Positions 2,688 to 63,714 of a stretch of DNA of 64,000 nucleotides are shown here, piece by piece. This DNA comes from Alphaproteobacteria bacterium. Its GTDB lineage: Bacteria; Pseudomonadota; Alphaproteobacteria; Rs-D84. Location: NCBI GenBank assembly GCA_017615655.1, contig JAFZZS010000007.1, forward strand, positions 59,463 to 123,462. Reading direction: 5' to 3'. How positions within the stretch are numbered: position 1 is the stretch's first letter; every line of letters begins with the position of its first letter. The position numbers and the translations under genes were made by a program. Under the pieces are notes generated by a model. That model was not told the DNA's origin, ran no database searches, and saw only the letters and a list, made by a program, of their open reading frames with translations.

Positions 2688-2691
2688 AAAA

Positions 2692-2717: not shown

Positions 2718-3131
2718 TTTGCCACGTGATTGTTGAACTGGGAAATTTTGTCTTCTTATAACCTTTCGAATTGCAACAAAAATTTTGGCCAATCTGCCTT
2801 CTTTTTGTTCTTTGTTCGCCAAATCCGCAATAACTTTTTCTTCTTTTCCATCACTAAAGTCTGTATTAGTAGCAAAAGATTTAGCACGTTTAACAGATTC
2901 TAACCAATTCAACGTGCTGTATGTAATATTCGTAGAATTTGGATCATACCGTTGCATTTCTAATTCGTTTAAAATATTACGGCATTTATCAATTGCGGCA
3001 TCCATTGTGCGTTCAAATTTTTCTGTATTTATTACTTTACCTGTTTCATCCATGGCACCTGTATTTTGTAATTCTTGTTTTAAAGTGCTTGTAATTTCAT
3101 CAAGTTGTTTTTGTGTATCTAGGTAACTCAT
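2715..3131 (-). CDS. hypothetical protein (downstream of virB11-like gene)
   Basis: 138 aa ORF, charged and coiled-coil-like; no recognisable motif. Confidence 0.4.
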   Translation of the reverse strand: MSYLDTQKQLDEITSTLKQELQNTGAMDETGKVINTEKFERTMDAAIDKCRNILNELEMQRYDPNSTNITYSTLNWLESVKRAKSFATNTDFSDGKEEKVIADLANKEQKEGRLAKIFVAIRKVIRRQNFPVQQSRGK

Positions 3132-3156
3132 TTTTTACTCCTTTTTATATCTTTTG

Positions 3157-4152
3157 TTATACAACCTCGGTTACGGCGCGCAAAGAACCATCGCGTGAGA
3201 GTTGCACAACACGTATCTTTTGCTTCATTTCTGTAATTAATTCTGTACGATCATATGCAGGTTGCGTGTGTAAAATCCGGTCGGCAAAAGCGGCATACGC
3301 GGCATCAGCACTTTCGGCATGAATTGTCGTATAAAAATGTTCGTGCCCTGTGCCCAGCATTTCCCACATTACCGCGGCATTGTCTGTTGAAATTTCACCA
3401 CCAATTATCACATCTGGGGTCATACGAACCACCAAATCAAGCAATCTTGCATAATTAAAATTATTTGTTTGCTCGGTACGCGAAAGTACAAAATGAACAC
3501 GATTTTTTTGTGGAACAATAACTTCACGTGCATCTTCAACCGTAATAACGCGACAATTCTGATCAATAAGCGTCAACATGTGGTTTAAAAATGTCGTTTT
3601 GCCGGTTGCGGTTGCGCCACTTATTAAAATTGGACTGCCGTCATTTATGGCTGACATTAATCTATCATAAGGGTCATCTGGGCGTGTTGTTTCGCGTGGC
3701 TTCACCTTTAAAAGTTGTTCGCCATGTTTAAGATGATAATTTTCAAATGATGTTTCTGAAACCCCGCCACCACGAATATTAAGTGCCACACCACCTGTTA
3801 CATCACGTTCATCATATTGAACATTTGGACCCGCAATTGCGCTAAAACGATGATTACCGGGTAATGTCGCGTACACAACCGGCATCCCATGAATCGGATC
3901 AAATGGGCGTTCGTATATATTAGCAATCGTATGTATCAGGTCCACAAGGTACTGTTTTGATAATACCGGGGCGTCATATGCAACCCATGGAACGCGTGCA
4001 CCATGCAGGCGCATCCATACCTCACCCTCGTGATTTATCGCAATTTCTTCAACAAAAGACGGGCGATAAAAGTCCGATAAGGGTTTTAATAAAGAATCTA
4101 GTACAACATTTGACATCAAAATCATTTTATCATAAATCCTGACTTGAATCAA
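3157..4152 (-). CDS. virB11: type IV secretion ATPase, VirB11/TrbB family
   Basis: N-terminal LLKPLSDFYRPSFVEEIAINHEGEVW matches VirB11 LLKPILEWLDDPKTEEIAINRPGEAFV. Walker A LISGATATGKTT; RVITVEDAREV; RMTPDVIIGGEIS; TIHAESA (VirB11 TIHGANP). Length 331 aa. Confidence 0.85.
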   Translation of the reverse strand: MIQVRIYDKMILMSNVVLDSLLKPLSDFYRPSFVEEIAINHEGEVWMRLHGARVPWVAYDAPVLSKQYLVDLIHTIANIYERPFDPIHGMPVVYATLPGNHRFSAIAGPNVQYDERDVTGGVALNIRGGGVSETSFENYHLKHGEQLLKVKPRETTRPDDPYDRLMSAINDGSPILISGATATGKTTFLNHMLTLIDQNCRVITVEDAREVIVPQKNRVHFVLSRTEQTNNFNYARLLDLVVRMTPDVIIGGEISTDNAAVMWEMLGTGHEHFYTTIHAESADAAYAAFADRILHTQPAYDRTELITEMKQKIRVVQLSRDGSLRAVTEVV

Positions 4153-4192
4153 AAGAGTTTATTTGATAAAATACAAAAAAAGAGAGAAAAAT

Positions 4193-4750
4193 ATGAAAAA
4201 ATCATTTTTACTTATTTTGTGCTCGTTGCTTGCGTTTGCAGGCTGTGCAAGCGATACACCGTACAATGTTGACGATTTCGCAAATGGCGGCGAAGATGCC
4301 CCGATATATAATGAACGTACAAGTACATTCATGCAGGCAGATAATCCATTTGCAAGTGTAGATTCCTATCGACCAAAAACTGAAATAGAAAAAGAAGAAA
4401 TGAATAAACGGTGGAATACGTCTCGTATGGAGACCCGTTGGCAAGAATACAAGGGTGTTATGGTTCGTGTGCAAATACTACTTGGCAACACCGATTTACG
4501 TGAAATGCGTTTACGTTTAATGCAAAATGCTGATGGTATGGATGTTGATGGTGATATTCGTACCGTGTTAAGCAAAGTGGCTGATTATGAAATGAAACGT
4601 GTTTGTGGGCGTAATGCCGATAGCATAGTTTTAGTTTATGATAAACCATCATTTGAATCTACACGTCCTACGCCGTTTTTTGACTATCGCATAGAGGCTG
4701 ATGGTGTCACAATGCGCGAATACGGCTTTAGATGCGTTTTTAACAATTAA
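4193..4750 (+). CDS. lipoprotein of unknown function
   Basis: MKKSFLLILCSLLAFAGCASD signal peptide with lipobox LAFAGC. ORF track starts earlier at 4163; the signal peptide begins at the internal Met. Confidence 0.55.
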   Translation: MKKSFLLILCSLLAFAGCASDTPYNVDDFANGGEDAPIYNERTSTFMQADNPFASVDSYRPKTEIEKEEMNKRWNTSRMETRWQEYKGVMVRVQILLGNTDLREMRLRLMQNADGMDVDGDIRTVLSKVADYEMKRVCGRNADSIVLVYDKPSFESTRPTPFFDYRIEADGVTMREYGFRCVFNN

Positions 4751-4772
4751 ACAAAAAACAAAAGGAAAAAAA

Positions 4773-5105
4773 ATGAAGAAAATATTAAGTGTTTTCGGTG
4801 TGTGTGGTGCGCTTTTTTGCGCGGGTTGCGATGCAGGCGATATGACCGCACAGCAGGGTGATACAGTAATTATCAATTTTGCGGGTTACCTGGATGGTGT
4901 TCAATTTCCAGGAGGAACCGCAGAATCGTATCCATTAGTATTAGGGTCGGGTGCATTTGTTCCAGGCTTTGAGGATCAGTTGGTTGGTGCCAAGAAGGGC
5001 GAAGAACGTGATGTAAATATTACATTCCCAACGCAGTATGTCCCAGATTTGGCCGGAAAAGATGTTGTGTTCAAAGTAAAAGTACTGGACATCAAAAAGA
5101 AATAA
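4773..5105 (+). CDS. FKBP-type peptidyl-prolyl cis-trans isomerase, lipoprotein
   Basis: Signal/lipobox MKKILSVFGVCGALFCAGC. FKBP core INFAGYLDGVQF...GSGAFVPGFEDQLVGAKKGEERDVNITFP. Good RBS aaaaggaaaaaaaATG. The ORF-track start at 4701 is probably too far upstream. Confidence 0.75.
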   Translation: MKKILSVFGVCGALFCAGCDAGDMTAQQGDTVIINFAGYLDGVQFPGGTAESYPLVLGSGAFVPGFEDQLVGAKKGEERDVNITFPTQYVPDLAGKDVVFKVKVLDIKKK

Positions 5106-5117
5106 TGTTCACGATAT

Positions 5118-5150
5118 AAAAAGATGCCGGATTTTTTCCGGCATCTTTTT
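5118..5150. terminator. bidirectional rho-independent terminator
   Basis: aaaagatgccgga-ttttt-tccggcatctttt between convergent genes. Confidence 0.8.
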
Positions 5151-5943
5151 ATTTTCGTTTTTCACGCATTTCATTAACCAATTGTTCAAATTCGGCAAAT
5201 GATTTTATTCGTGTCAATTTATATGTTGATATTTTTACATTAAGATCGTTCAAAATTACACTTTGCCAATAGTTCATAGACAATGCCGCGCGAATCGTAG
5301 CCCATAATGGATTGATAGATTCATTTTCAATGCGTGAATCTGGCGCTTTGCCTTGGGCAATAAAAGATTGTTCTGCGGCATTACCAATATTATAAATTCG
5401 CATGCCAATATCTATTTTGATATCAAAAAACCTTTCCAATTCCTTTAATTTACTGGTCAATTTGGTAGAATCAAATCCAAATTCTTGGGTCTCACGTATA
5501 AGGTCACTAATTTTTTCTGTTGATTGAACTGGGCGCCCACAAGCAGTTTTAATGTTACCAAGAATATAACTAAAAATCATACGGCGGTTCCATTGTTTTC
5601 CTTTGCCGGATGTTTTTTTAACAACAGGTGTAGGTACACTGGGCACTTCGGGTATTTTTGTCGAATCTGATGTTTTATTTAGTTTGTTTTTTGAATTTAA
5701 TATAAATATAAAAACAACAGTGTAAAGTTCTGTTACCGTCATATCAGATATATTTCGTGATATATTCAATTTGAATTGGTTCCTGATTCGTTCTTTAATA
5801 AGGGCGATGTCTTCGGGAAATGTAATTATCTCGGATATTCTTGAAAGCGGATTAATAGTTTCGGCAAAGGTAGAATTTAATAAAATATTATTTACTTGCC
5901 TTTTAATAACAGCTTTAAGTTCTTGTGGTGTATTCGGTGCCAT
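5149..5943 (-). CDS. hypothetical protein
   Basis: 264 aa ORF, no recognisable motif; same strand as lpxI and the 136-aa ORF. Confidence 0.4.
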   Translation of the reverse strand: MAPNTPQELKAVIKRQVNNILLNSTFAETINPLSRISEIITFPEDIALIKERIRNQFKLNISRNISDMTVTELYTVVFIFILNSKNKLNKTSDSTKIPEVPSVPTPVVKKTSGKGKQWNRRMIFSYILGNIKTACGRPVQSTEKISDLIRETQEFGFDSTKLTSKLKELERFFDIKIDIGMRIYNIGNAAEQSFIAQGKAPDSRIENESINPLWATIRAALSMNYWQSVILNDLNVKISTYKLTRIKSFAEFEQLVNEMREKRK

Positions 5944-5957
5944 GAATTCTTCCCCAA

Positions 5958-6368
5958 TTATCTATTTTTATCACGTGCTTTGACAACAGCATTTTCCATC
6001 ATTAAATTACCAGTGTTTGTGCTGTCATATGGTGTATCGACCATACGTCCCCGTTTAGACAGTGACCATTCCGCTATGGATGCGATGTCGTCCATTGTAT
6101 AAGATGCATAAATCTTGATTTTAAATGCGTTTTCTATATGACGTAATTGTTTGGTGAGTTTTGCAATTTTCACTGCGGTTTCATCAAATTCTGCTTCGTA
6201 TAGCATACGACCGATTATCTCGTCCGGGGCAACGTACCGGTGCATAGCATGCCCAATACGGTATGTTATCATATCGTATATTTGGCGCGTTGTCCAAAAG
6301 GGGCGGGGTTTTAATTTTGGTGTAAAACTTTCGTCCGGTGAACATAAAGAGTCAGTATATTCGTCCAT
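5958..6368 (-). CDS. hypothetical protein
   Basis: 136 aa ORF, no motif recognised. Confidence 0.4.
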   Translation of the reverse strand: MDEYTDSLCSPDESFTPKLKPRPFWTTRQIYDMITYRIGHAMHRYVAPDEIIGRMLYEAEFDETAVKIAKLTKQLRHIENAFKIKIYASYTMDDIASIAEWSLSKRGRMVDTPYDSTNTGNLMMENAVVKARDKNR

Positions 6369-6427
6369 TTTATCCTCTATGCAATTACAACGGAAATATT
6401 AAACAAATAAATTATATTGTCAACAAA

Positions 6428-7252
6428 TTATTCATTAACCGCTATTATAAAAATACCCCGTTTATCCGCAGTTTTGATAACATTTTGTTTGTCCACAATA
6501 AAGCAGGTTTTCGCATTAACCACAATACCTTTTAACTTTGCATCGGCAACCGCATTTACTGTGTCCACACCAATAGCGGGAATATCTATGCGCAAATCCT
6601 GTCCAGGTTTCGTCATTTTTGCAAAAACCCCACTGTTCTTTTTGTGGTTTTTACGCATTTTTACAACACGGTCTAGCATTTTGGCGGTTCCTTCAGCTGC
6701 CTCGACTGCGATAACCTGCTTGTCAACAACCACAGATGCGCCGATGTCTTGACCTCCTATGATATGTGATACCTCGATTGCGCGATCAATATTTTTCTTA
6801 TCGTTGCGAGTCGGCTTGTGTTTAGTCATGCATCCTGCATGCTCAAACGTCAGTTCTGGCGCTAAATCCTGTGCCGCAACTACTTGGTATCCAGAACGTT
6901 CAAGTGTTTTTGTAAATGCAACAGCCATTGAATCATACCCCCGTTGATTTTTTAGTATACGAAAAAGTGCGAAAAATGTCCACAAATCCGGACGTAAATC
7001 TGAAAAGTTCGGATGTCCCAACGCACCAACAAACGTCATTTTGTTTATTCCGCGTCGTCTGAATTCACGTAATGCATGGCCGCCGCCGCCAAGCCGAACA
7101 ACCATATCAGGCTTAAGCCTTTTGTCGTAAAAGTTCTTTAATCCAACGACAAAAACATCCCATCCGTTTTTTCTTAACGCATCACGCGTATAAAACGGTA
7201 AATCAAGCGCACCCGCCACCAAAGCTATCTTTTTATTATCGTATTTCATCAT
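6428..7252 (-). CDS. lpxI: UDP-2,3-diacylglucosamine pyrophosphatase LpxI (DUF1009 family)
   Basis: 274 aa; KIALVAG...G start and GGGG loop (RLGGGGHALREFRRRG) as in alphaproteobacterial LpxI, which replaces LpxH in that class. Confidence 0.7.
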   Translation of the reverse strand: MMKYDNKKIALVAGALDLPFYTRDALRKNGWDVFVVGLKNFYDKRLKPDMVVRLGGGGHALREFRRRGINKMTFVGALGHPNFSDLRPDLWTFFALFRILKNQRGYDSMAVAFTKTLERSGYQVVAAQDLAPELTFEHAGCMTKHKPTRNDKKNIDRAIEVSHIIGGQDIGASVVVDKQVIAVEAAEGTAKMLDRVVKMRKNHKKNSGVFAKMTKPGQDLRIDIPAIGVDTVNAVADAKLKGIVVNAKTCFIVDKQNVIKTADKRGIFIIAVNE

Positions 7253-7333
7253 ATTAATGATATGTTAAGCATAAATCAGACTGGAATCAAGTTAGTTTTT
7301 ATGATACAATCAATACGATAGAACGAGTGTCAA

Positions 7334-8293
7334 ATGAAGAATAAATCCTGTTTTGCAATATCACTTGCGTGCATCGTTGCCTGTATGAACGCTGATGCTA
7401 CAAGTCAAAGTCGTCAGTTTAAAAATGAAATTCGGGATGGTTTATCGCCCATTGATCAAGAGTATGTCAATGCCCCTGCGTATTCATATGCGCCGTATAT
7501 TCCCGAAGATACATACGTTCCATATAATCCAAATGCGTATGTATGTTCATGCGCAAACGATATTCCTGTGTATGCAAATGAATTAAATGTTTCAGAGCCT
7601 GCGTATGAAACAGAGGCTTCTACGTGCCCATGTGCAAATGAAGTTGTGGATGCATCGATACCTAATCAAGACGATTATTACGAGGCAGTAAATCAAGAAG
7701 TTTTTTATGATGATGTCGCATATAAGGATATTGAATATGATACATTTGTTCCAACAAGTATGTATTTGCGTATTGGTGGTGGAATGAATCTTGCGATGGC
7801 TACGACAAAAGCACGTGTGGCCGATGAAAAATTTAAGTCAAAAAATTCATGGAATGTATTACTGGGACTGGGGTGGAATTTGTCACCGTATGTGCGTACA
7901 GAAATAGAATTCCAAGATTCTGAATTCAAGTTCAAAGATTTAAAAGATGCCAGTGCAACTTATCATATGCTTAATGGAATGTTCTATTTTGATTTTATCC
8001 GTCGTTATGTACAAGATGGTGGTATGGCATATCGTCGCACGTTTGTGCCATTTTTGGGAATCGGGGCCGGCATTGGTGAATATGATTTTTCTGGATCAAA
8101 TGGCAGTGACGGACTGGTTATCGCGGCACCACGTGCTGAATTGGGTTTCAATTTAATGATAACTGAATTAATTGGTATTGATATTGCGTATCAATATCAA
8201 ATGATGATAGATAAGGGTTTCGGTTGGAATACAAAGCGCACGGGTGTTGATCATATTAGTAATGTTATGGCAACATTTCGTGTGAATTTCTGA
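7334..8293 (+). CDS. outer-membrane beta-barrel protein (Omp25/OmpA-like surface antigen family) with Cys/Tyr-Pro-rich N-terminal extension
   Basis: Signal peptide; alternating amphipathic strands; C-terminal ...TFRVNF ending in Phe. Paralogous to the 8307 and 38381 genes. Confidence 0.65.
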   Translation: MKNKSCFAISLACIVACMNADATSQSRQFKNEIRDGLSPIDQEYVNAPAYSYAPYIPEDTYVPYNPNAYVCSCANDIPVYANELNVSEPAYETEASTCPCANEVVDASIPNQDDYYEAVNQEVFYDDVAYKDIEYDTFVPTSMYLRIGGGMNLAMATTKARVADEKFKSKNSWNVLLGLGWNLSPYVRTEIEFQDSEFKFKDLKDASATYHMLNGMFYFDFIRRYVQDGGMAYRRTFVPFLGIGAGIGEYDFSGSNGSDGLVIAAPRAELGFNLMITELIGIDIAYQYQMMIDKGFGWNTKRTGVDHISNVMATFRVNF

Positions 8294-8306
8294 TAAGGAA
8301 TGTGTT

Positions 8307-8942
8307 ATGAAAAAGATATTATTTTGCTTATTGTGTATACTGCCAATGACCGCTGGTGCAGATGTTATTTATGATACCCAGCAAGCCAGCTACACGACCA
8401 GGGTTACCAAAAACAGCGATGCTTTTGCATCGGTGCACAGGTTTTACCTTGGCGCCATGTACGATTTTTCAATGTGGATGGATTATGTCGGGGATTCGGA
8501 TATTGCACATGGTAAAAATGTGTCGGGTTTCGATATTGTTGCCGGCTTTCGACCATACGATATAATTCGTATCGAGGCTGATTATATGAACACGCGTGCA
8601 AAATGGGATTTGTTTGCTATAAACGCAAATACATTGTTCATTAATACAATTGTTGATGCACGTATAGATAATCTTTACCGCACGTTTTATAAACAGCACT
8701 TAGTCCCATATGTCGGTGCAGGGGTGGGGTTGACGTGGACCGGCAGTGACGATGTTAACGTAAAGAATGATACAGGTGTATCGGTTGCGGCAATGGCAGG
8801 ACTAGGAATAGAATGTAGCGAATATTTTACGATTGATTTAGGATATCGCTATGTTTACATGTTCAAACCAAAAATTGAGCCGATGCCTGATTTGAACCCG
8901 GCGTCACATCAGATTCGTGCCGGTGTAAGAGTAAATTTCTAG
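8307..8942 (+). CDS. outer-membrane beta-barrel protein (8-strand Omp25/OmpW-like paralogue)
   Basis: Signal peptide MKKILFCLLCILPMTAGA; YVGAGVGLTW glycine strand; C-terminal IRAGVRVNF. Confidence 0.65.
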   Translation: MKKILFCLLCILPMTAGADVIYDTQQASYTTRVTKNSDAFASVHRFYLGAMYDFSMWMDYVGDSDIAHGKNVSGFDIVAGFRPYDIIRIEADYMNTRAKWDLFAINANTLFINTIVDARIDNLYRTFYKQHLVPYVGAGVGLTWTGSDDVNVKNDTGVSVAAMAGLGIECSEYFTIDLGYRYVYMFKPKIEPMPDLNPASHQIRAGVRVNF

Positions 8943-15373: not shown

Positions 15374-17080
15374 ATGGGAAATTTTATAAAAACACAAACT
15401 TCATTTGCTAATGGCGAGATTTCGCCCAATTTTTTTGCGAATGATAATATGCATGGTCTTGCATATATGGAAAATATGGATGTTATCCCGGGTGGGGGAC
15501 TTACCAGGCGTGCCGGACTAAAATCATTAGCTACATTACCATCTAGTGCCAGACTGATTTCTTTTTCAGCGTCTGAAAATGATAATTATGTCCTAGCGAT
15601 TATGAATGGAATTATTCGCGTGTTTTCTAGTGGCGAATTTGTGCAAGATATTATAGCGCCATGGACATCAAATGATTTGATGAAATTGCAATATGCGCAA
15701 CGTTTTGGAACGATAATATTTGTTCATCCAGATTATAAACCGCGAATACTTTCTTGTGAATCCAGCTCATTTCAATTGCTAGAATTTACATTTACATATA
15801 CCGATGATTTAAACAACATAAATATGCCGTTTATGCGATTCGAAGACTCTGAAGGTATAACATTAACACTTACGCATACAAATGACGGAGTGCAACTTAC
15901 AACGAATCAAGATTTTTGGACTCAAGATAATGTTTATGGGCATTTATCATTGCTTGGTAAAACATTTCTGGTACAAAGTTATATAGATTCGCGGAATATA
16001 ATCGCAGTATGTAATGGAACATTTACATACCCAAATACGCCAGTGTCTGATTGGAAAGAGGCGGTATTTAGTTATCGTCGGGGTTGGCCAATAAGCATAA
16101 CATTTCATCAAAATAGATTGGTGTTTGGCGGATCCAAATCATGGCCTGGTGGTGTTTGGATGTCTTGTGTCGGACAGCATAGAAATTTTAATACGGGTAC
16201 AGGACTTGATGACGAGGCGATATTTTTCACCTTACTATCAGGACGCAGGCAACATATTTGCACATTGGTAAGCAGTGATAATTTACAGATTCTTACATCT
16301 GAAGGCGAATGGGCGGTGTCCAATAAACCGCTGACACCCGAATCAGTAAATATAAAAATGCATACATCTGTGGGCAGTCCCGCGGATATATATTTGCCCC
16401 CACAAGAAATGGAAGGCAAAACGATATTCGTTTCTAATAACAAACAGGATATTCGTGAACTGACGTTGGATGAATTGGGCGAAAATTATAATGCGAATAA
16501 TTTATGCGAGTTATCTGCTCATTTGATACAAAAACCAATTGATATTGCGTACAACAAAAAACAAAAGCGTTTATTTGTCGTTATGCAAGACGGTAACATG
16601 GCCGTGTTAAATCGTGATGTATCACTGGATATATCTGCGTGGGGCCGTTATACCACAAGTGGTAAATTCTGTTCGGTCGTTGTTTGTGAAGGTAATACAT
16701 TTGTTGTTACGAAACGTGATACAACTTTTTATCTTGAGCAATTTTCTGATTCCGAAATGATAGATGCAACGAATCAAAAATATACGGTACGTGCCGTAGG
16801 GTTACCACTGATGTCGGCAGGGCATAATGCACACAAAATTCAAATAAGGAAGATTATTGCAAGATTGTATAATTCCAAGACGTTGTTTATAAATGGTCTG
16901 CGCGCAAATTTGCCCAATAATGCATATTCCATAGATTCTGGGGGGTATTCAGGCGACATTTCTATGAATACCATTGGAACATGTTTACCAATTAGTGACG
17001 CACCATGGGAATTATCTACGACAGATGCAATGCCGTTAACAATATTGTCTATAACAATATATGGCAGATATCAAATTTAA
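15374..17080 (+). CDS. tail tubular protein B (T7 gp12 homologue)
   Basis: N-terminus FANGEISPNFFANDNMHGLAYMENMDVIPGGGLTRRAGL...IRVFSSG parallels T7 gp12 LKGGISQQPDILRYPDQGSRQVNGWSSETEGLQKRPPL...GIRVFDLSG. 568 aa. Confidence 0.65.
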   Translation: MGNFIKTQTSFANGEISPNFFANDNMHGLAYMENMDVIPGGGLTRRAGLKSLATLPSSARLISFSASENDNYVLAIMNGIIRVFSSGEFVQDIIAPWTSNDLMKLQYAQRFGTIIFVHPDYKPRILSCESSSFQLLEFTFTYTDDLNNINMPFMRFEDSEGITLTLTHTNDGVQLTTNQDFWTQDNVYGHLSLLGKTFLVQSYIDSRNIIAVCNGTFTYPNTPVSDWKEAVFSYRRGWPISITFHQNRLVFGGSKSWPGGVWMSCVGQHRNFNTGTGLDDEAIFFTLLSGRRQHICTLVSSDNLQILTSEGEWAVSNKPLTPESVNIKMHTSVGSPADIYLPPQEMEGKTIFVSNNKQDIRELTLDELGENYNANNLCELSAHLIQKPIDIAYNKKQKRLFVVMQDGNMAVLNRDVSLDISAWGRYTTSGKFCSVVVCEGNTFVVTKRDTTFYLEQFSDSEMIDATNQKYTVRAVGLPLMSAGHNAHKIQIRKIIARLYNSKTLFINGLRANLPNNAYSIDSGGYSGDISMNTIGTCLPISDAPWELSTTDAMPLTILSITIYGRYQI

Positions 17081-22236: not shown

Positions 22237-23463
22237 ATGAAATATGATTTACAAAAAATGTATACGCATGCATTGGCGGTTCGTGAACCATGGCTTAAAA
22301 GGTGGTACGATGCGCGCAAGTACACAATGCCGACATCAGATGAAGATATGGCAATGTTATTTGATGCGACCGCTGCGGATGCTGCAGATAACCTGGCAGC
22401 ATGTATGTATTCTTTGCTTACGCCCCCGGAATCATTGTGGTTGAATCTTGTTCCCGAAAGCCCAGAATCACCAAATGCAGAAGTTGCAACAGCTGTACTG
22501 CGTGCAAATCTTAACGATTCAAATTTTTATACAACAATTCATCAATGCTATATGGATTTGGTAACATTGGGAACGGCCTGTTTATTTATGGCAGAAAGTC
22601 CAATTGGTGCATCCAGTGCATTTTCATTTACTGCAATTCCAATGAAAGACATTGCGATTTTGCCGAATGCAGTTTTTCATACCACATCTATTTCGATTAG
22701 TGACGTGATGGCGCGTTATCCAGAATGGACACCTACACGTGAAATTGCCGACAAATTAAAACAAAATACCGATTTTTCGGTACGTTTAGTCCAGGCATTA
22801 ATAGGTTCTGATTTTACAGCGTGGTTGGATGTTGGTGGAAATCTTGAAAACAATATTGTATCGTGCGGAACGTTTGAAACAAATCCATACTTAATTTTCC
22901 GTTGGTCCGTAACCAGTGGTGAGCAATATGGTGTCGGACCAATTTTACGTGCATTACCTGATATAAAAACCGCAAATAAAGTTGTGGAACTGGTTTTGAA
23001 AAACGCAACTATTGCCGTCAGTGGTATATGGCAGGCAGACGATGATGGTGTCATAAATCTTGAAAATATTAATTTAACCCCCGGGGCAATAATTCCAAAA
23101 GCAGTAGGTAGCAGCGGTTTGACTCCACTTGCCACTGGGGCAAATTTTGATGTTTCACAAATTATACTAAAAGATCTACGCGAACGAATTCGTCATGCAT
23201 TACTTGCCGATAGATTGGGATTATTATCTGAAAAAGAAATGACGGCCACTGAAATATTGGCACGTAACGCGGACATGTTACGCATATTGGGTGCGACGTA
23301 TGGTCGATTATTGCACGAATTTATTCGTCCACTTTGTGACCGGGGACTGCAAATACTGTCACGTCGTGGTATCATAGATAAAATATCATTGCACAGTGAT
23401 GCGGAGTTAAAATACATTGCACCAATTGCCCAAATGGTTGCAGAAAACAACACAATTATATAA
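22237..23463 (+). CDS. head-to-tail connector (portal) protein, T7 gp8-like
   Basis: WLKRWYDARKYTMPTSDED parallels T7 gp8 YERLKNDRAPYETRAQNCAQYTIPSLFPKD. FRWSVTSGEQYGVGPILRALPDIKTANKVVELVLKNA parallels gp8 MVRLDGESYGRSYIEEYLGDLRSLENLQEAIVKMS. Confidence 0.7.
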   Translation: MKYDLQKMYTHALAVREPWLKRWYDARKYTMPTSDEDMAMLFDATAADAADNLAACMYSLLTPPESLWLNLVPESPESPNAEVATAVLRANLNDSNFYTTIHQCYMDLVTLGTACLFMAESPIGASSAFSFTAIPMKDIAILPNAVFHTTSISISDVMARYPEWTPTREIADKLKQNTDFSVRLVQALIGSDFTAWLDVGGNLENNIVSCGTFETNPYLIFRWSVTSGEQYGVGPILRALPDIKTANKVVELVLKNATIAVSGIWQADDDGVINLENINLTPGAIIPKAVGSSGLTPLATGANFDVSQIILKDLRERIRHALLADRLGLLSEKEMTATEILARNADMLRILGATYGRLLHEFIRPLCDRGLQILSRRGIIDKISLHSDAELKYIAPIAQMVAENNTII

Positions 23464-55569: not shown

Positions 55570-56991
55570 TTACATGTTGTTTCCAAATGGATGCATTAAA
55601 TTAAATATAGCGTTTTCATAATTTGGTTCTGGTTGCCAGCCACCTTTCGTTTTATGCCATTTTTTACCTTTCTCTATCAAATCTTGCAACATCTGACATA
55701 ACAATGGGTATTTCGGATTTTGTTTCAGTTCTTCCAGAGCCTTGGCACATTCTTGGGCTAATCTGTTGGAATTGCGACGCAATACTATGTCCAGGTATGG
55801 ATTGTATCCCTGTATTCCTTCTTTTTCTAATTTATCTGCATAGGCTAAATCTTTTTGCCAACTTTCTTCGTTCCCAAAATTGGGATCGCCTGGGTATTTT
55901 TGTGCCATTTCCCGATAGTTATCAACATCCCATCTGATGAATCGAATTTTCTGTGCCATGTATTCTTCGTGAAATCTGTATACACTTAGTGGCGTGCCAT
56001 CTAGAATCACCGCGGCAAATGCCTTTGTATGTGAACTATGCATAATAAATTCGTAAATATCGCCAATATCCCCCGTTTTACATACAGTAACAAACCCCAA
56101 ACCTGAAACCCCGATGTCTTCGAATTCTTTTTCCATCGAACCACTATGACCTTTGTTTCCGCTATTACCACGTATTCCTTGGGTACGTGCGGTTTTGGCG
56201 ACAGTTGCGGATATGTTATCCTCGTGCGAGTGAACATATTCATAACCCATTGCTTTCATTGTTTTGCGCACCACAAATTCACGCAAAAACATTGTCAATA
56301 TCATCATTCGTGTTTCTTCCAAAAGCCCGTGCAGAAAAAGATGTTTATCACCTGCGGCATCATAGGCTTTTTTTACATATTCGTCTTGCAACAATGTCTT
56401 TAACTCAAATTCTGGTAAATCACATTTATCATACTTGTCATATAATTCACGATCAGGTGATTTAACGTGGGATAAAATTATTTTGATTTCGTCATCTGTG
56501 AAATTGTCGGTCTTATACGTTGATACATTTTCACCGATACTAAATAATGTATCATTATTTGGTCTGACGATACGTGCATTTTTTGGCAAAATAAGACCTG
56601 TATCCGGATTTGGCACAAAGTATGTATCCTCGCTTGCAACTTCTTGGGGATTGCCATTTATTTTTACCGTGTCTTCATAGGGAGTTAATATAACAAACGG
56701 TGCATCATCCCAATTACCCCCCATATGACTGCTAACAATTTGATTCAATGTAAAATGAACGGTTGCACGTGCATATTTATACCCCGTCGCCGCCCCAGTA
56801 GTTTCAATATACATTTGACTATTTCTGTTGCGTTTGGGTTTATACTTTGTTGCATGGACACAAATCCAGTTTTCCGTATTTGACATAGGTGGTGTATACC
56901 GGGTAGAAAAGCCACCCCAATGCGAATCTGTCATATCTGCAATTGCTCGTTCATAGTCATCAATTTTTGCCATGTTGTCCACCATGTTCAA
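55570..56991 (-). CDS. hypothetical protein (473 aa), candidate secreted effector
   Basis: No recognisable motif; no signal peptide; adjacent to a tRNA gene. Confidence 0.45.
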   Translation of the reverse strand: MNMVDNMAKIDDYERAIADMTDSHWGGFSTRYTPPMSNTENWICVHATKYKPKRNRNSQMYIETTGAATGYKYARATVHFTLNQIVSSHMGGNWDDAPFVILTPYEDTVKINGNPQEVASEDTYFVPNPDTGLILPKNARIVRPNNDTLFSIGENVSTYKTDNFTDDEIKIILSHVKSPDRELYDKYDKCDLPEFELKTLLQDEYVKKAYDAAGDKHLFLHGLLEETRMMILTMFLREFVVRKTMKAMGYEYVHSHEDNISATVAKTARTQGIRGNSGNKGHSGSMEKEFEDIGVSGLGFVTVCKTGDIGDIYEFIMHSSHTKAFAAVILDGTPLSVYRFHEEYMAQKIRFIRWDVDNYREMAQKYPGDPNFGNEESWQKDLAYADKLEKEGIQGYNPYLDIVLRRNSNRLAQECAKALEELKQNPKYPLLCQMLQDLIEKGKKWHKTKGGWQPEPNYENAIFNLMHPFGNNM

Positions 56992-58225: not shown

Positions 58226-58428
58226 TCCGACTATGACGGCTTCTAGCGCACACGTTCTTGGCGTTTTGCAAAGGCAAGAAGTTCAGTGCGATAGTTTTTC
58301 ATTGACTGTTCGTTCACGAATTTTACAACCTGCACATATCCGCTTGTCATAAGAAGTTCAAGAATCCATTTTCCTTCTTGTTCATCAAATTTTTGCGATT
58401 GTATCTCTTTAAACATTTTTGAACCCTT

Positions 58429-58983
58429 CTATTTTATAACCCCACGTTTTTTTAATGCCATCATTAATGTAGGATAATATTCTGTGCGTCCACGCAGGTG
58501 ATGATTATATGCCGTATCTTCGTTTGAAATCATAACAATATCAATATTATTATCTAAACAACTGGCTACTACACTTGGTGAATCATCAAAGCATAAATCT
58601 ATATTGTGCTTTTTAAGTGCATTAATTTTTGGCGTACAATTTACAACGCGTGTCTTGTCGCAGATTATTCCTGCATTTTTTAATTGCCCCCAATCATCAC
58701 CATCAGGACGTTCCGTGATATAAAAAAGCATATATTTTGGATCATTATATATTGTATTTAATGCGGCGGGAATTTGACCATCAAAAAGACTAGTAGAATA
58801 AATTGCATCAGAATGCAACATATCGTATAACGCATCCGCTACAGGTTCTGGATAAGAATTTTGGTATACATCATATGATACTGGCGGGGTGTACCTGCAA
58901 TTGAGTTTTTCTATTGTGGCGCGATATTTCTCGGCCAGATTAAAAATAGTATTATCTAAATCAATTGCAATTCGTGTCTGCAT
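58429..58983 (-). CDS. HAD-superfamily hydrolase, putative 5'(3')-deoxyribonucleotidase
   Basis: Motif I IAIDLDNTI (DxDxT); 184 aa; NT5C-like length. Confidence 0.45.
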   Translation of the reverse strand: MQTRIAIDLDNTIFNLAEKYRATIEKLNCRYTPPVSYDVYQNSYPEPVADALYDMLHSDAIYSTSLFDGQIPAALNTIYNDPKYMLFYITERPDGDDWGQLKNAGIICDKTRVVNCTPKINALKKHNIDLCFDDSPSVVASCLDNNIDIVMISNEDTAYNHHLRGRTEYYPTLMMALKKRGVIK

Positions 58984-59228
58984 ATGTAACCCTTTGTTTG
59001 TGGTATTATAATTACGAAAATTGTCATAATCAAATAATTTTGGTGTTTTGTAATAATTGCTTTGACATTTGGGATAAAAACTTGCATAATACGGGCGTGC
59101 AAAGACGGCACCAGGTAATAAAATGGTACAAAATACTAAGAAATCTTTATCATGATGGTGCGACCATAAAGCAATTTACGGGCGCACCTTTGTGGTGCCC
59201 CGTTTTTTTAAAAACAAAAGGAAAAATT

Positions 59229-60695
59229 ATGTCAGAAAATACATCTATGTCCACAAACGAACTAACGGCACGTCTGCAAAAGGCAGAAAATATCCGTGCG
59301 CGTGACGGGGTTGTATGGAAAGACAAATTTGACCGCACACATACAATTGAATCTGCACGTGAATTAGCGGATGGAACACCTGTTCGCCTTTGTGGGCGTA
59401 TAACTGCGTTGCGTTGGCTGGGTAAGTTGATGTTTGGCCGTATTTATGACATAAATGGCGAAATTCAATTCTCTATGTCGCGCGAAGAATTAGGCGAAGA
59501 AAACTATAAATTTATGAAAACCAATGTCGATATGGGCGATTTTATTGGTATTACTGGCGAGCTTTATCATACAACCGCAGGTGAATTAACCGTCCGGGTT
59601 GCTAAATATGATATTTTGGCCAAGGCGCTGCGTCCGTTACCCGAAAAGTTTCATGGACTTACAGATATGGAAACCCGTTATCGTCAACGTTACCTTGATA
59701 TAATATCTAATCCTGATGCACGTAATGCTCTACTTGGGCGTTTCAAAATGACCCAGCATTTGCGTGAGTTTATGAATGATAATGGATTTTTGGAAATTGA
59801 AACCCCTATTATGCAAAATATTGCATCGGGGGCGGCGGCGCGACCATTTACAACTCATCACAATGCATTAAACGCGGATTTCCAATTACGTATTTCACCG
59901 GAATTGTTCTTAAAGGAAGCTATTGGTGCCGGTTTTGACAGGGTCTACGAGGTTGCCAAAGATTTTCGTAACGAGGGTATGGATGCAATGCACCTGCAAG
60001 AGTTTACAATGATTGAATGGTACGCAGCATATTGGGACTATAAACGTAATATTCAATTCACATGGGATTTGGTTCAAAATTTGATTAAGCGGGCACGTGG
60101 CACATTGCAGATTGAATATCAAGGCACTAAACTGGATTTTAGTAAATATGAAATGATGGATTACACAGCAAAAATGAATGAATTATTCGGCTGTAACATT
60201 TTAGATTTTGATGATGTAAATGTTTTACGTCAAAAATTGGTGGACGAAGGTATGTTCCCAATGTCTGAATTAGAAGATTTGAAATCTTTGGCAACTTTGG
60301 TCGATTACGTGTACAAGCGTAAAATCCGTGGCAGTATTGTTCAGCCAACATTCCTGTACAATTATCCAACATATATGGTACCATTAGCGCGTCGTAATGA
60401 CGAAGATGTGCGTCGCCTGGATATGTATCAATTGTTGGTATGTGGTGGTGAATTGTGTAAGGGATATTCTGAATTGGTTAACCCAATTCAACAACTAGCC
60501 GCATTCGAAGAGCAGGCACGCGATATCGCAAACGGCGAAGAGGAGGCATTTAATCCTGATAATGATTTTGTTCGTGCGATGGAACATGGTTTTCCGCCAA
60601 TTTCTGGCGTTGGAATGGGAATAGATCGTTTGACAATGATTGTATTTGATCAGCCGACTGCACGTGATGTTGTGTTATTCCCAATTATGAAGTAA
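59229..60695 (+). CDS. lysS: lysine--tRNA ligase (class II)
   Basis: N-terminal OB anticodon-binding domain; motif 2 FRNEG; HLQEFTMIEWY; motif 3 GMGIDRL. Start MSENTSMSTNELTARLQ. Confidence 0.93.
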   Translation: MSENTSMSTNELTARLQKAENIRARDGVVWKDKFDRTHTIESARELADGTPVRLCGRITALRWLGKLMFGRIYDINGEIQFSMSREELGEENYKFMKTNVDMGDFIGITGELYHTTAGELTVRVAKYDILAKALRPLPEKFHGLTDMETRYRQRYLDIISNPDARNALLGRFKMTQHLREFMNDNGFLEIETPIMQNIASGAAARPFTTHHNALNADFQLRISPELFLKEAIGAGFDRVYEVAKDFRNEGMDAMHLQEFTMIEWYAAYWDYKRNIQFTWDLVQNLIKRARGTLQIEYQGTKLDFSKYEMMDYTAKMNELFGCNILDFDDVNVLRQKLVDEGMFPMSELEDLKSLATLVDYVYKRKIRGSIVQPTFLYNYPTYMVPLARRNDEDVRRLDMYQLLVCGGELCKGYSELVNPIQQLAAFEEQARDIANGEEEAFNPDNDFVRAMEHGFPPISGVGMGIDRLTMIVFDQPTARDVVLFPIMK

Positions 60696-60709
60696 AAAGG
60701 AATATAATT

Positions 60710-62110
60710 ATGCCAAGTGTCAAGGTTCCTGAAGTTGATATTTTGACGGCTGATCACGATAGACATAATCTTGCATACATAGATAAAGTAGCCGCATCGG
60801 GTCGTATAAATGATGAAGCAGCAACTTATCTAAGGCGGTTGTATGCTGATGGCATGTCTTGTTATCGTGAGGTTTTTCATATTCTTGGCAAATGCTTTGG
60901 AGCCCCAAAAACAGCGGTTACTGAATATGATTCTGAAACAGATTTACCTGTAAATAAACCGATAAAAATTATTGATATTAACCCGCTGTCATCATATTTG
61001 GTAAACCATCGTTTGGATGCCGACCCAATGCGTAACCAATTCTTTACTTCGGGTGCCGCACACAAAATAGATTTATCGGTATCTTCTATTGTCACGGTCA
61101 TTGTTGGATCACAAAAAAATGTAGAACGTGCATTGGACAAGGTAACTGGAAAATATTATCGGTTTTTTACCGAAGATGTTATTTTGGCAGTTACGCGTGC
61201 AATGTCCGATATATATGATGAAAAATATATTGAAAAAATTATAAAAAAAATTCAGACGCGTTTCAGTGAGAAATACGTTACAGATGCGGCCGAAGAAGTT
61301 ATTTCTGTTTTGGGTCCAAGTGATGATAAACTGGTCGTTAAAATTGTTCGTGAATTAGACAAAGTAAAAAAGCCCCATCTTTATCTTAATGATGTATGGC
61401 GCGTAAAATGTCTGTTTGATTTGATTCCCCAGGCGCGCACGTTTATTGAACGTTTGCGTGATATTATGCCAGAACGTATAATTTCTGTGCGAGATAAATT
61501 TTATGATATTGGAAATCCGCGTAATTATCGTGATTCTAAGATAATTGTGAATATCGGTACACCAGATAGTGTAATACCAATGGAAATTATATGCCAGGTT
61601 CGAACATTCTTTGAATTTGAACGTAAAACACACGATTATTATGCGATGTTGCGGGAACGTCCAGATGCCAAAAATTTAAAGATAGAGCAAGATGCTGCCG
61701 AATTGATGGAAAATGGAATAATACAATATAATATGGTCATTTGTCGTTGTCTTGATGACTTATTTGATAGAATGGGTTGGAACATTTTATACAGTCGTGG
61801 TGGCGATGTATCTTTATTCGAAGGGTTTCCACGTGAATGCAAATTATACTATCCGCAACCTATGCTAGAAAAAATCTTTACTAAACTTGATGCCGCGGTA
61901 AAAAATGAGATATTTCACATAACGCATTCATCGTCAAAACTTGATATGACCCAGGAAATTGCGATATTTAGGTTTATGGCTCGGTTTATTCTTTGTGCGG
62001 CGATGCCGCGCGCGCGTGCTGGTAAAAATATTCCAGGTGATAGATTATCAGTACGATTGTTTAACTTTATTATGAATGAAGTATATCGGTATTATAATAC
62101 CAGTAAATGA
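60710..62110 (+). CDS. protein with RelA/SpoT-like nucleotidyltransferase (alarmone-synthetase-like) domain
   Basis: C-terminal half: VWRVKCLF...KFYDIGNPRNYRDSKIIVNIG...PMEIICQVRTFFEFERKTHDYYA. Compare the RSH synthetase order R-K ... DhhGhR ... GYxSLH ... hEhQIRT..M..WAE..H..YK. 466 aa; 14 nt downstream of lysS. Confidence 0.4.
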   Translation: MPSVKVPEVDILTADHDRHNLAYIDKVAASGRINDEAATYLRRLYADGMSCYREVFHILGKCFGAPKTAVTEYDSETDLPVNKPIKIIDINPLSSYLVNHRLDADPMRNQFFTSGAAHKIDLSVSSIVTVIVGSQKNVERALDKVTGKYYRFFTEDVILAVTRAMSDIYDEKYIEKIIKKIQTRFSEKYVTDAAEEVISVLGPSDDKLVVKIVRELDKVKKPHLYLNDVWRVKCLFDLIPQARTFIERLRDIMPERIISVRDKFYDIGNPRNYRDSKIIVNIGTPDSVIPMEIICQVRTFFEFERKTHDYYAMLRERPDAKNLKIEQDAAELMENGIIQYNMVICRCLDDLFDRMGWNILYSRGGDVSLFEGFPRECKLYYPQPMLEKIFTKLDAAVKNEIFHITHSSSKLDMTQEIAIFRFMARFILCAAMPRARAGKNIPGDRLSVRLFNFIMNEVYRYYNTSK

Positions 62111-62245
62111 TGGACATTGTTTGAACACAGGAATAAAAATCCGATTTTTGTTATTTTCTTGATTTTACATTTTTGTTATGACACAATCAAAATAGATTTA
62201 GTCAAACATGGCTGAATCATAAACAAGGTAGCAAAGGAAAAAAAA

Positions 62246-62590
62246 ATGCGCCAAGGTAAAGTAAAATGGTACAATGGTAAAAAGTGTTTCGGATTTATTG
62301 CGCCCGATACACCAAATGCAGACGGCAATACTGATGATGTATTTGTTCATTCAAGTTCGTTAAAAGAGGCCGGTTTACGTTTCCTGAACGAAGGTGATAT
62401 TGTCGAATTCGAAGAAGAAGTTCGTAATGGAAAATTATCTGTAACAACAATCAAATTAATACAACGCGATGAAGAATCTGCAAAAAGATTTCAGGAACGT
62501 CGCGCGGAGCGCAGACGCGCACGCGAAGAACGCAAAGAACGTGAAGAGCATAAAGAAAAACGCTCGGGTTTCGCGTTCTGGAAAAAATAA
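62246..62590 (+). CDS. cold-shock domain protein with basic C-terminal tail
   Basis: GKVKWYNGKKCFGFIAPD RNP-1 motif; VFVHSS RNP-2; Arg/Glu/Lys-rich tail. Confidence 0.9.
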   Translation: MRQGKVKWYNGKKCFGFIAPDTPNADGNTDDVFVHSSSLKEAGLRFLNEGDIVEFEEEVRNGKLSVTTIKLIQRDEESAKRFQERRAERRRAREERKEREEHKEKRSGFAFWKK

Positions 62591-62593
62591 ATT

Positions 62594-62621
62594 AATCCCG
62601 CAATTGCGGGATTTCTTTTTA
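62594..62621 (+). terminator. rho-independent terminator
   Basis: atcccgcaattgcgggat plus a T-run. Confidence 0.8.
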
Positions 62622-62694
62622 TGATAAAAGAATATGATTTGATTTTAATCTAATTTGGTATAGAATAATAACGGTTAACAAAAGGGGGTACTAG

Positions 62695-63237
62695 ATGTGG
62701 ACAGTAATTGGTATAGTTGCGGCATTGATATTGTATTTTGTGGCGGTTTATAACGGTCTTGTGTCGCGTAGAAATCAGGCACGCGAGGCATGGGCAACAA
62801 TCGATACTCAGTTAAAACGTCGGTATGATTTAATTCCAAATTTGATAGAAACAGTACGAGGTGCGGCTGCTCATGAAAAAGATACTTTGTCGGCGGTTAT
62901 TGCGGCGCGTAATGTCGCAATGGCTGCAAATGGTGCAGTTGATAAATCCATTGCAGAAAAGGGATTAACTGGCGCGCTTAATAAGTTATTCGCACTGGGC
63001 GAAGCCTATCCAACATTGCGTGCAAATGAGAATTTTTTAGAATTGCAACGCGAGTTGACAGATACAGAAACCAAAATTCAATCTGCACGTCAATTCTATA
63101 ACACGGTTGTGATGGCACTGAATACGCAGATAGAACAATTCCCCAGTAATATTGTCGCGCGTATGTTTGGTTTCGCACCGGAACATTTATTTGAAATTGA
63201 CGATAGTGAACGCGTTGCGCCACGTGTAAAATTTTAA
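62695..63237 (+). CDS. lemA: LemA family protein
   Basis: N-terminal TM plus VYNGLVSRRNQAREAWATIDTQLKRRYDLIPNL signature. Confidence 0.85.
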   Translation: MWTVIGIVAALILYFVAVYNGLVSRRNQAREAWATIDTQLKRRYDLIPNLIETVRGAAAHEKDTLSAVIAARNVAMAANGAVDKSIAEKGLTGALNKLFALGEAYPTLRANENFLELQRELTDTETKIQSARQFYNTVVMALNTQIEQFPSNIVARMFGFAPEHLFEIDDSERVAPRVKF

Positions 63238-63251
63238 TAAATTGGTGATAT

Positions 63252-63285
63252 AAAAAACGCCGCCCAAACGGGCGGTGTTTTTTAT
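63252..63285. terminator. bidirectional rho-independent terminator
   Basis: aaaaacgccgccc-aaac-gggcggtgtttttt. Confidence 0.8.
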
Positions 63286-63294
63286 AAATCAAAT

Positions 63295-63714
63295 TTACAT
63301 CTCTTCTGATTTAGGCATATGATGATGTCTTTCATGCATTTCACGTTTCATCGCTTCTTTGGTTGTACTAAATTCTTCTAAACTTACACAACCATCTGCA
63401 TTTACATCGGCACTTTGTAATGCTTCAACCATTTTTGGACAATGGATTGATTGCATATCTAAACAGCCATTTTCGAAAACAGGGTGTATTTCTGGCATAG
63501 CGCGCATATGATGACGTTTATGACAGCATGTTACTTTTGCAACTGCGAACCCAAGTAAAAATACGATTACAATTACAACAAATTTTTTGAATTTACCATG
63601 ACGGCAACCGCACTGGCATGCGGCACCACATTGGCATTCATGCGCTTCCGGTGCAATTGTGGGTGCATATTTTTTGGTAACTTTTTTTGTGTTTTTGATT
63701 GGTTTTCTTGGCAT
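63295..63714 (-). CDS. small Cys/His-rich protein with EF-hand calcium-binding loop
   Basis: DVNADGCVSLEEF canonical 12-residue EF-hand loop; TM segment; Cys-rich N-terminus (CQCGAACQCGC). Confidence 0.5.
   Translation of the reverse strand: MPRKPIKNTKKVTKKYAPTIAPEAHECQCGAACQCGCRHGKFKKFVVIVIVFLLGFAVAKVTCCHKRHHMRAMPEIHPVFENGCLDMQSIHCPKMVEALQSADVNADGCVSLEEFSTTKEAMKREMHERHHHMPKSEEM

Follow-up and report, generated by a model that had tools for sequence, protein, structure and literature searches.

We analyzed a stretch of 64,000 nucleotides from contig JAFZZS010000007.1 of an alphaproteobacterium of the order Rs-D84 (referred to as the window) with respect to an open reading frame (ORF) located directly downstream of lysS, the gene for lysyl-tRNA synthetase (LysRS). 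The encoded protein of 466 residues very probably adopts the synthetase fold of RelA/SpoT homologues (RSH). In its predicted model it resembles small alarmone synthetases (SAS) in the fold and in key residues, yet it fails the Pfam RelA_SpoT sequence-profile test. Its conserved residues make it probable that the protein is an active phosphotransfer enzyme, and the sequence upstream of lysS makes it similarly probable that the ORF is co-regulated with LysRS by lysine attenuation. Our preferred interpretation, which we hold with a probability of roughly 45%, is a catalytically competent, highly divergent, SAS-like RSH enzyme of housekeeping type that would be induced together with LysRS and would produce an alarmone. 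The searched literature contained no description of this protein family, its architecture or its coupling to lysS. For the coordinates of all features of the operon see Table 1.

Fold and active site

An alignment of 26 sequences of the close family was used as input for AlphaFold2 and as the basis for calling residues invariant. The resulting model (predicted local distance difference test score, pLDDT, 78.6; predicted template modeling score, pTM, 0.77) displays the mixed β-sheet β1–β5 with flanking helices that characterizes the SAS synthetase (SYNTH) fold. A Foldseek search against the PDB yielded RSH synthetase domains as all of the top 50 matches (E ~2e-3, probability 1.0), which include RelP, RelQ, YwaC, CapRel, FaRel, an exported SAS, Rel and SpoT. 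Sequence libraries gave no comparable hit. The best Pfam domain in an hmmscan of Pfam-A at E ≤ 1 was DUF2400 at 0.11, with nothing else, and no HD domain was found by Pfam. NCBIfam, PADLOC and PHROGs contained no match, and neither phmmer with the ORF nor hmmsearch with the family profile retrieved any PDB sequence. Ten distant or longer relatives are likewise devoid of Pfam domains.

For a comparison at the sequence level we employed an RSH profile of 14 sequences, comprising RelQ, two streptococcal SAS chains and annotated plasmid-borne RSH proteins. The RelQ sequence in this profile is identical to PDB-entry 5DED. After addition of intermediate and distant relatives to the family alignment, hhalign paired residues 221–300 with residues 62–142 of RelQ (Prob 66%, P = 5.6e-5). 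In this alignment D228 corresponds to the metal-binding D72 of RelQ on strand β2 and E292 to the metal-binding E139 on strand β5. The G-loop residues N272-Y273-R274 match G115-Y116-R117, and the preceding pair R261-D262 matches R105-D106. K233 is paired with R77, to which R231 is also close, and K277 is paired with H120. H308 is the equivalent of H155, with a spacing of 16 residues between the glutamate and the histidine in both proteins. The pairing of D228, Y273 and E292 with RelQ, together with the 50 structural matches, shows that the RelA/SpoT-like nucleotidyltransferase fold had been called correctly in an initial annotation made from the sequence.

D228, R231, K233, R261, D262, Y273, R274, K277, E292 and H308 are all invariant in the close family. 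In a distant clade with ~25% sequence identity the equivalents of the aspartate, tyrosine, glutamate and histidine are again invariant (including D183, Y237 and E257), and the catalytic strand reads hEhQhK with the canonical E-x-Q-x-K spacing. Both the metal-binding Asp and Glu and the G-loop Tyr with its preceding R-D element are thus found in the alignment. Conservation of these residues and of the basic residues between clades as distant as this is the pattern that a functional RSH-type active site would be expected to show.

The donor-phosphate element of RSH synthetases (RxK/SxxxK) would most likely correspond to strand 127–132 of the model together with K136, R140, K144 and K148. In FaRel2 this element is formed by R64 and K66 on β1 and by S70, K74 and R77 on the following helix (PMC11782079); the roles of residues in FaRel2, RelP and RelQ were taken from PMC11782079 and PMC3153485. 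The strand and the four basic residues are invariant in the family, K130, R134 and K138 are invariant in the distant clade, and in both predicted models, one of them of high confidence, the order of elements around the strand matches that of SAS enzymes.

This mapping changes part of the initial annotation, which had placed four motifs within residues ~225–315 (quoted peptides at residues 229–236, 265–273, 273–283 and 291–312). Its GY-like strand, with Y273 aligned to Y116 of RelQ, and its catalytic strand–helix from E292 to H308 stand, whereas the other two motifs are each displaced by one structural element. According to the profile alignment and the element order, the peptide VWRVKCLF taken for RxK belongs to the D-x-x-G-x-R strand, in which DVWRVK (228–233) carries the catalytic Asp. 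The peptide YDIGNPRNY taken for that strand is the loop leading into the G-loop (YDIGNPR), and its G268 is variable. RxK itself is likelier found at strand 127–132 with K136, R140 and K144, upstream of the region considered. The QIRT-like motif "QVRT" had been assigned to the correct Glu/His helix, but it lies two residues downstream of the canonical E-x-Q-x-R.

If the placement of RxK is right, the protein would consist of a SAS fold extended by an N-terminal β-unit with loop 103–123, an insertion of ~70 residues and a C-terminal domain of ~140 residues. Loop 103–123 (window positions 61016–61078; DADPMRNQFF...H118) is the most conserved stretch of the protein, with nearly all residues invariant. 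It has no counterpart in SAS enzymes and is the worst-modeled part of the whole protein (pLDDT below 50); it may serve to bind a substrate or a partner. The helical insertion (residues 149–225) is ~70 residues longer than its SAS counterpart and varies in sequence and length among clades. The C-terminal helical domain ends in the conserved sequence LFNF[VI]MxE[VI]xRYY. Structural matches of the region 317–466 were generic helical bundles only, none of them specific.

Distribution and selection

A search of 5.8 billion proteins yielded 605 homologues of ~460–470 residues each with 55–100% identity over the full length. None of them carries a name or a Pfam domain, and the named sources are alphaproteobacterial metagenome-assembled genomes. 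The wider superfamily is very small, as no more than 50 of 1.84 billion cluster representatives were retrieved at E ≤ 1e-3 when these were searched exhaustively with a profile; a protein search starting from intermediate relatives led to only four proteins. Among GTDB contigs with one genome per species, 275 genomes encode a relative. These are assigned to Candidatus Enterousia, uncultured Alphaproteobacteria or Rickettsiales and originate from rumen, faeces and caecum. The family is confined to Ca. Enterousia and its relatives in the order Rs-D84, a lineage with genomes of ~0.75–1.0 Mb that lacks the tricarboxylic acid cycle and respiration (PMC12306168).

The ORF is present in one copy per locus. 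A tblastn search of 50,697 phage records and 72,556 plasmids found no relatives. Pairwise ratios of nonsynonymous to synonymous substitution rates (dN/dS) between the ORF and its close orthologues are ~0.04–0.10, compared to 0.03–0.08 for the adjacent LysRS; these figures are rough because dS is saturated. Clade-wide presence, low dN/dS and the lack of matches in phages, plasmids, PADLOC and PHROGs point to a vertically inherited, strongly constrained gene of housekeeping type.

These data bear directly on a role as a toxin. The protein could be a fused toxin–antitoxin or anti-phage sensor like CapRel, as the initial annotation had considered, or a secreted alarmone synthetase directed against a host or a competitor. 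CapRel, FaRel, Tas1 and an exported SAS are indeed among the structural matches, and exported alarmone synthetases exist (PMC12691689). The conserved C-terminal RYY moreover recalls the tyrosine-based autoinhibition in pZFD domains (PMC11782079). However, the motif Y-x-x-Y (459–462) occurs in the closest subclade only, while most members have QRYY, and the C-terminal domain is predicted to be all-helical without a pseudo-zinc-finger. A signal peptide is not evident in the N-terminus (MPSVKVPEVDILTADHD...). No antitoxin gene was found, the neighbors being lysS and csp in nearly all loci, and the gene would be co-transcribed with an essential synthetase. Taking into account the single copy in conserved synteny (275 species genomes with a relative, 80 species loci examined) and a purifying selection as strong as that on LysRS, we regard a toxin as highly improbable. 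A host-directed effector, also proposed initially, found no support, the coupling to the lysS operon and the slow evolution pointing against it.

The third early suggestion, a fragmented rickettsial spoT paralogue, does not agree with the data either. The rickRel and rickSpo proteins possess recognizable RelA_SpoT or HD domains; truncation, duplication and a link to mobile elements are common among them (PMC3153485). In contrast, the family described here is intact and uniformly of full length in all 605 homologues, with neither a RelA_SpoT nor an HD match in Pfam.

Operon organization

As initially annotated, the ORF has 466 codons and starts 14 nt behind lysS. The TAA stop codon of lysS ends at position 60695, and the gap preceding the ATG start codon contains the sequence AGGA. 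Neither this gap nor the one between the ORF and the following cold-shock-domain protein gene (csp) contains a terminator-like site. We compared 86 loci, namely the window, five metagenome contigs and 80 species genomes. A LysRS gene is located directly 5' of the ORF in 85 of them, and a csp match was found in 79, nearly always immediately 3' of the ORF. The proposed co-transcription with lysS is thereby substantiated. Since the genes flanking the trio of LysRS gene, ORF and csp vary among lineages, the trio itself is the conserved unit.

The LysRS gene is not always of the same class. Upstream of the ORF, 77 loci have a class II gene only, five have a class I gene (lysK, PF01921) only (L004, L005, L010, L017 and L018), and three have a class I gene followed by a class II gene (L009 3–2938, L012 6913–9979 and L022 6953–9986). 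In the five class I loci the next gene is always the same 466-residue ORF. It is uncommon for a genome to encode LysRS of both classes. Where class I is the first cistron, it is preceded by the same leader as class II lysS, so a class I gene entered the operon behind the leader and in front of lysS, and some species subsequently lost lysS. A replacement of the LysRS class thus appears to be under way within one genus. By its sequence context the ORF takes second or third place among the cistrons of a unit composed of leader, (lysK), (lysS), ORF and csp.

The sole exception is locus L028, where a gene on the minus strand (2208–8783) replaces the upstream lysS. It encodes a cysteine-rich, repetitive protein of 2191 residues with the look of a surface protein, which suggests a local rearrangement or insertion.

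Leader with Lys codons upstream of lysS

Between a promoter-like site and lysS we observed a short leader ORF, two alternative hairpins and a T-run (Table 1). The promoter-like site has the top sigma-70-like score within positions 58300–63400, and equivalents (TTGACA/TTTACA ... CATAAT) are conserved in related loci. The leader ORF of the window stops 2 nt before GUGCGACC, which can pair with CGCAC. Sixty-six distinct leaders from 74 loci share this arrangement: an ORF of 8–10 codons with the pattern M-x(3-4)-K-[K/R]-x-[L/F]-x-stop ends 2–6 nt before an invariant GUGCGACC. The lysine position, usually within KK or KR, is retained while the remaining residues vary.

Both hairpins could be folded in all 61 parsed leaders, with mean energies of -10.8 kcal/mol for the antiterminator and -13.8 kcal/mol for the terminator. 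They are mutually exclusive, as the 3' arm of the antiterminator, GGGCGCAC, is common to both. The inner helix of the antiterminator covaries (UAAA:UUUA, UGAA:UUCA, UCAA:UUGA and CAG:CUG). The core pattern is found once in the window, where shuffling predicts zero occurrences, and each of 75 loci contains it once; equivalent positions are, for instance, 6337–6366 in L004 and 8438–8467 in L007. With leader ORF, alternative hairpins, T-run and a position 5' of the gene all present, the leader has, as judged from its sequence, the classical layout of a leader-peptide attenuator reading Lys codons. The geometry of hairpins and ORF suggests read-through when Lys-tRNA is scarce.

Rfam contains no family matching the lysS leader, either at the gathering threshold or at E ≤ 10. 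A T-box was considered and rejected on account of the missing Rfam match, the leader length of only ~130 nt and the clear leader ORF. A tRNA gene found just 5' of the leader in some loci was considered as tRNA-Lys and turned out to be tRNA-Gly(GCC). Divergent from the leader, an ORF of 184 residues without Pfam match is located on the minus strand (58429–58983), with its 5' end 78 nt from the promoter-like site.

Table 1. Features of the lysS operon and segments of the 466-residue protein (window coordinates).
Feature	Position	Strand	Details
Promoter-like site	59062..59090	+	TTGACA, 17 nt spacer, CATAAT; 11/12 matches, consensus match only
Leader peptide ORF	59123..59155	+	MVQNTKKSLS*, 10 codons; Lys codons AAG AAA at 59138-59143
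Antiterminator hairpin	59158..59187	+	GUGCG-A-CC-A-UAAA ... UUUA-C-GG-G-CGCAC, 30 nt
Intrinsic terminator	59179..59209	+	CGGGCGCACC uuugu GGUGCCCCG + T7; -16.5 kcal/mol
lysS, class II LysRS	59229..60695	+	488 aa; PF00152 at 6e-74, PF01336
Divergent RelA/SpoT-homologue (SAS-like) ORF, predicted	60710..62110	+	466 aa, ATG start
Residues 1-126	60710..61087	+	Three N-terminal helices (6-63), small β-unit (70-101), loop 103-123
Residues 127-148	61088..61153	+	Strand IVTVIV with K136, R140, K144, K148; candidate β1/α "RxK...S...K" ATP-phosphate element
Residues 149-225	61154..61384	+	Helical insertion between β1/α and β2
Residues 226-316	61385..61657	+	Catalytic core β2-α-β3-β4-β5-α
Residues 317-466	61658..62107	+	Long helix (323-360), then C-terminal helical domain
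csp, cold-shock-domain protein	62246..62590	+	114 aa; PF00313 at 1e-15
First terminator-like hairpin 3' of the operon	62594..62613	+	Bidirectional

Proposed mechanism and alternatives

Based on the leader and the predicted structure we propose the following mechanism. When Lys-tRNA(Lys) is scarce, a ribosome would stall at the Lys codons of the leader, the antiterminator GUGCG...CGCAC would form and RNA polymerase would read through. When charging is adequate, the ribosome would reach the leader stop 2 nt before GUGCGACC and mask it, so that the terminator forms. This attenuation step is proposed on the basis of the conserved alternative hairpins and the Lys-containing leader ORF. The induced enzyme, judging by its fold and invariant residues, would then bind ATP-Mg via K136, R140, K144, D228 and E292. 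A purine nucleotide, kept in place by R261, R271, R274 and K277 and stacking on Y273, would receive the β-γ pyrophosphate at its 3'-OH. The least certain step is the nature of the product, which would be an alarmone, (p)ppGpp or (p)ppApp. One starvation cue could in this way raise LysRS and release a stringent-type signal, with the RNA leader sensing in place of a ribosome-bound RelA.

Concerning the acceptor, we lean at slightly less than even odds towards a free nucleotide. The gene is universal in the clade without an antitoxin, housekeeping SAS enzymes rank first among the structural matches, and a starvation signal coupled to extra LysRS is biologically coherent. In addition, the basic cluster beside the G-loop tyrosine (R261, R271, R274 and K277) is retained. 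Such a cluster is typical of alarmone synthetases and reduced in the tRNA-targeting FaRel2 (PMC11782079), which we take as weak evidence for an alarmone.

Several observations weigh against an alarmone synthetase. The Pfam-A search gave no RelA_SpoT match (PF04607) at E ≤ 1; support at the sequence level came solely from our own hhalign comparison, which aligned the catalytic Asp and Glu, D228 and E292. The comparison to the RSH profile did not reach significance with the close-family alignment by itself (P = 0.066). An hhalign comparison restricted to the N-terminal 165 residues likewise gave no significant result and paired them with the wrong element, and for this reason the placement of RxK stays conditional. 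The canonical G, R, Q and R neighbors of the catalytic Asp and Glu are kept only in part. In a gapless register, I294 and Q296 occupy the places of the Q and R of E-x-Q-x-R-T (Q141 and R143 in RelQ). The Arg of D-x-x-G-x-R (R77) is Lys here and Thr or Ser in the distant clade, and the first Arg of RxK (R46) is Ala or Ser134. No hydrolase partner was seen near the ORF, and a tblastn search with 15 RSH proteins and E. coli SpoT found nothing in the window and related loci (1.57 Mb, all of the same neighborhood). The leader holds one or two Lys codons only. Finally, the tRNA enzymes encoded next to relatives of the ORF (tgt, a YbaK-like deacylase and fmt) fit a tRNA substrate at least equally well.

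The exchanged RelQ positions are also what speaks for an RSH-like fold with different or no chemistry. The protein might catalyze nucleotidyl transfer or a kinase-like modification of a protein or small molecule (lysine-derived or of the diadenosine tetraphosphate (Ap4A) type from LysRS), or it might be a non-catalytic regulator associated with LysRS or the ribosome. A domain that Pfam does not recognize, large insertions, an extra C-terminal domain and the invariant loop 103–123 without SAS counterpart would all be compatible with such a role. However, the two metal-binding carboxylates, the base-stacking tyrosine and the nearby basic residues are invariant across clades of ~25% identity, and we consider altered or lost chemistry improbable.

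The neighborhoods of relatives outside the lysS-linked clade bear on the alternative of an RNA substrate. The intermediate relatives P0122 and P0127 sit 3' of ruvB, and P0130 overlaps the 3' end of tgt. In the distant clade a gene for a YbaK-type aminoacyl-tRNA editing (deacylase-like) protein is adjacent to, or one gene away from, P0174, P0194 and P0190. P0163 is convergent with fmt (methionyl-tRNA formyltransferase). The loci with tRNA-enzyme neighborhoods are L102 6770–9965, L098 7370–9407, L099 6096–8121, L105 3140–6401 and L107 370–2633. Only lysS and tgt are co-directional with the respective relative. Other relatives have unrelated neighbors, including transporter genes. The recurrence of tRNA-handling neighbors is suggestive but was recognized post hoc.

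The protein could accordingly be a pyrophosphokinase of the 3' end of tRNA or another RNA, similar to FaRel2, PhRel2 and CapRel. It would then be a regulated housekeeping factor that pyrophosphorylates uncharged tRNA, perhaps tRNA(Lys), at its CCA end and would tune or protect the pool when charging fails. This alternative is serious because of the precedent in the fold and because of the neighbors. The same fold and G-loop tyrosine act on A76 of tRNA (PMC11782079; PMC11559606; bioRxiv 10.1101/2021.04.30.441581), and tRNA-enzyme neighbors recur across the superfamily, with LysRS upstream in 85 of 86 loci and tgt, YbaK-type and fmt genes elsewhere. The extra N-terminal β-unit together with the invariant loop 103–123 could read the acceptor stem. 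We nevertheless hold it to be fairly improbable. All known tRNA-pyrophosphorylating RSH enzymes are toxins of patchy distribution that need an antitoxin or an autoinhibitory domain, whereas this gene is clade-universal and without partner. It seems counter-productive to induce a tRNA-inactivating enzyme alongside LysRS, the basic character of the protein is only mild (isoelectric point 8.2, net charge +3), and the basic patch for the nucleotide phosphates beside the tyrosine is kept. Furthermore, the YbaK and fmt neighbors are divergent or convergent and hence non-operonic, and in genomes of ~900 genes tRNA-related neighbors are not rare, while other relatives follow ruvB or transporter genes.

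A broader reading covers both acceptors. A stringent-type response may have been rebuilt as a single operon in these genomes of less than 1 Mb. The attenuator would switch on LysRS together with a stand-alone, structurally divergent RSH enzyme, whose product would be either an alarmone or pyrophosphorylated tRNA. In this reading the RNA leader takes over from the ribosome-bound RelA sensor, and the enzyme would represent a new RSH subfamily that current RelA_SpoT profiles do not detect. As a whole we regard this reading as doubtful.

Relation to known systems

The closest structural relatives, RelQ (YjbM) and RelP/YwaC (SAS1/SAS2; PDB-entries 5DEC, 5DED, 6EWZ and 6FGK), share an identity of only 12–18% with the protein, which at 466 residues is twice as long as a SAS enzyme (~210 residues). 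It differs from them by the N-terminal β-unit with its invariant loop, the helical insertion, the C-terminal helical domain and the replacement of the four RelQ residues R46, R77, Q141 and R143. It also differs in its occurrence in Alphaproteobacteria with reduced genomes, in a fixed lysS operon behind a predicted lysine attenuator. Compared to CapRel(SJ46), FaRel2 and PhRel2 (PDB-entries 7ZTB, 9ERV and 8PU1), it has no antitoxin or pseudo-zinc-finger domain and keeps the basic patch near the acceptor tyrosine. Unlike these proteins it is neither mobile nor defense-associated but clade-universal under strong purifying selection. The domains that accompany the synthetase in the long Rel, RelA and SpoT proteins (HD hydrolase, TGS, helical, CC/ZFD and ACT/RRM) are all absent. 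Those enzymes sense deacylated tRNA on the ribosome, whereas we propose sensing through an RNA leader at the level of transcription.

Leader-peptide attenuators control aminoacyl-tRNA synthetase and amino acid operons in E. coli, such as pheST (with the leader pheM), trp and his. The lysS leader shares with them a short leader ORF with cognate codons, mutually exclusive antiterminator and terminator hairpins, a T-run and a position 5' of a synthetase gene. It is unlike them in having only one or two Lys codons and two hairpins, in a layout where a ribosome at the leader stop would itself mask the antiterminator. It further differs in its predicted control of lysS or lysK together with an RSH-like gene and in having no Rfam family. 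A lysine leader-peptide attenuator of lysS or lysK is undescribed in the searched literature and would constitute a second, separate novelty, adding a new class of attenuators for these genes.

RSH catalogues are built on sequence profiles, and a clade-wide housekeeping enzyme with an RSH fold can escape such profiles entirely. Organisms scored as RSH-less may therefore still have the chemistry. The coupling to LysRS outlasts the replacement of class II by class I. The combination of a putative lysine-sensing leader with an RSH-like gene suggests an unrecognized link from amino acid shortage to a stress response. It offers a model of how a gut bacterium with a minimal genome could, without RelA, convert the state of tRNA charging into a signal based on pyrophosphorylation of a nucleotide or of tRNA. 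In an abundant uncultured gut lineage, a protein that ranks among the most conserved of those annotated as "hypothetical" also receives a named hypothesis.

Other features of the window

An ORF of 408 residues on the plus strand (22237–23463) matches the phage head-to-tail connector (portal) family PF12236 at 1.5e-76. It lies ~0.9 kb away from the oppositely oriented dnaB in this genome of less than 1 Mb and may be a prophage remnant or part of an element resembling a gene-transfer agent. Three large ORFs of 1472, 568 and 473 residues (33885–38303, plus strand; 15374–17080, plus strand; 55570–56991, minus strand) have no Pfam match at 1e-5, which is noteworthy given a genome of ~900 genes. On the minus strand, positions 63295–63714 encode a Cys/His-rich protein of 139 residues, in which one stretch appears to span the membrane; its EF-hand-like matches are weak (E ~0.01).

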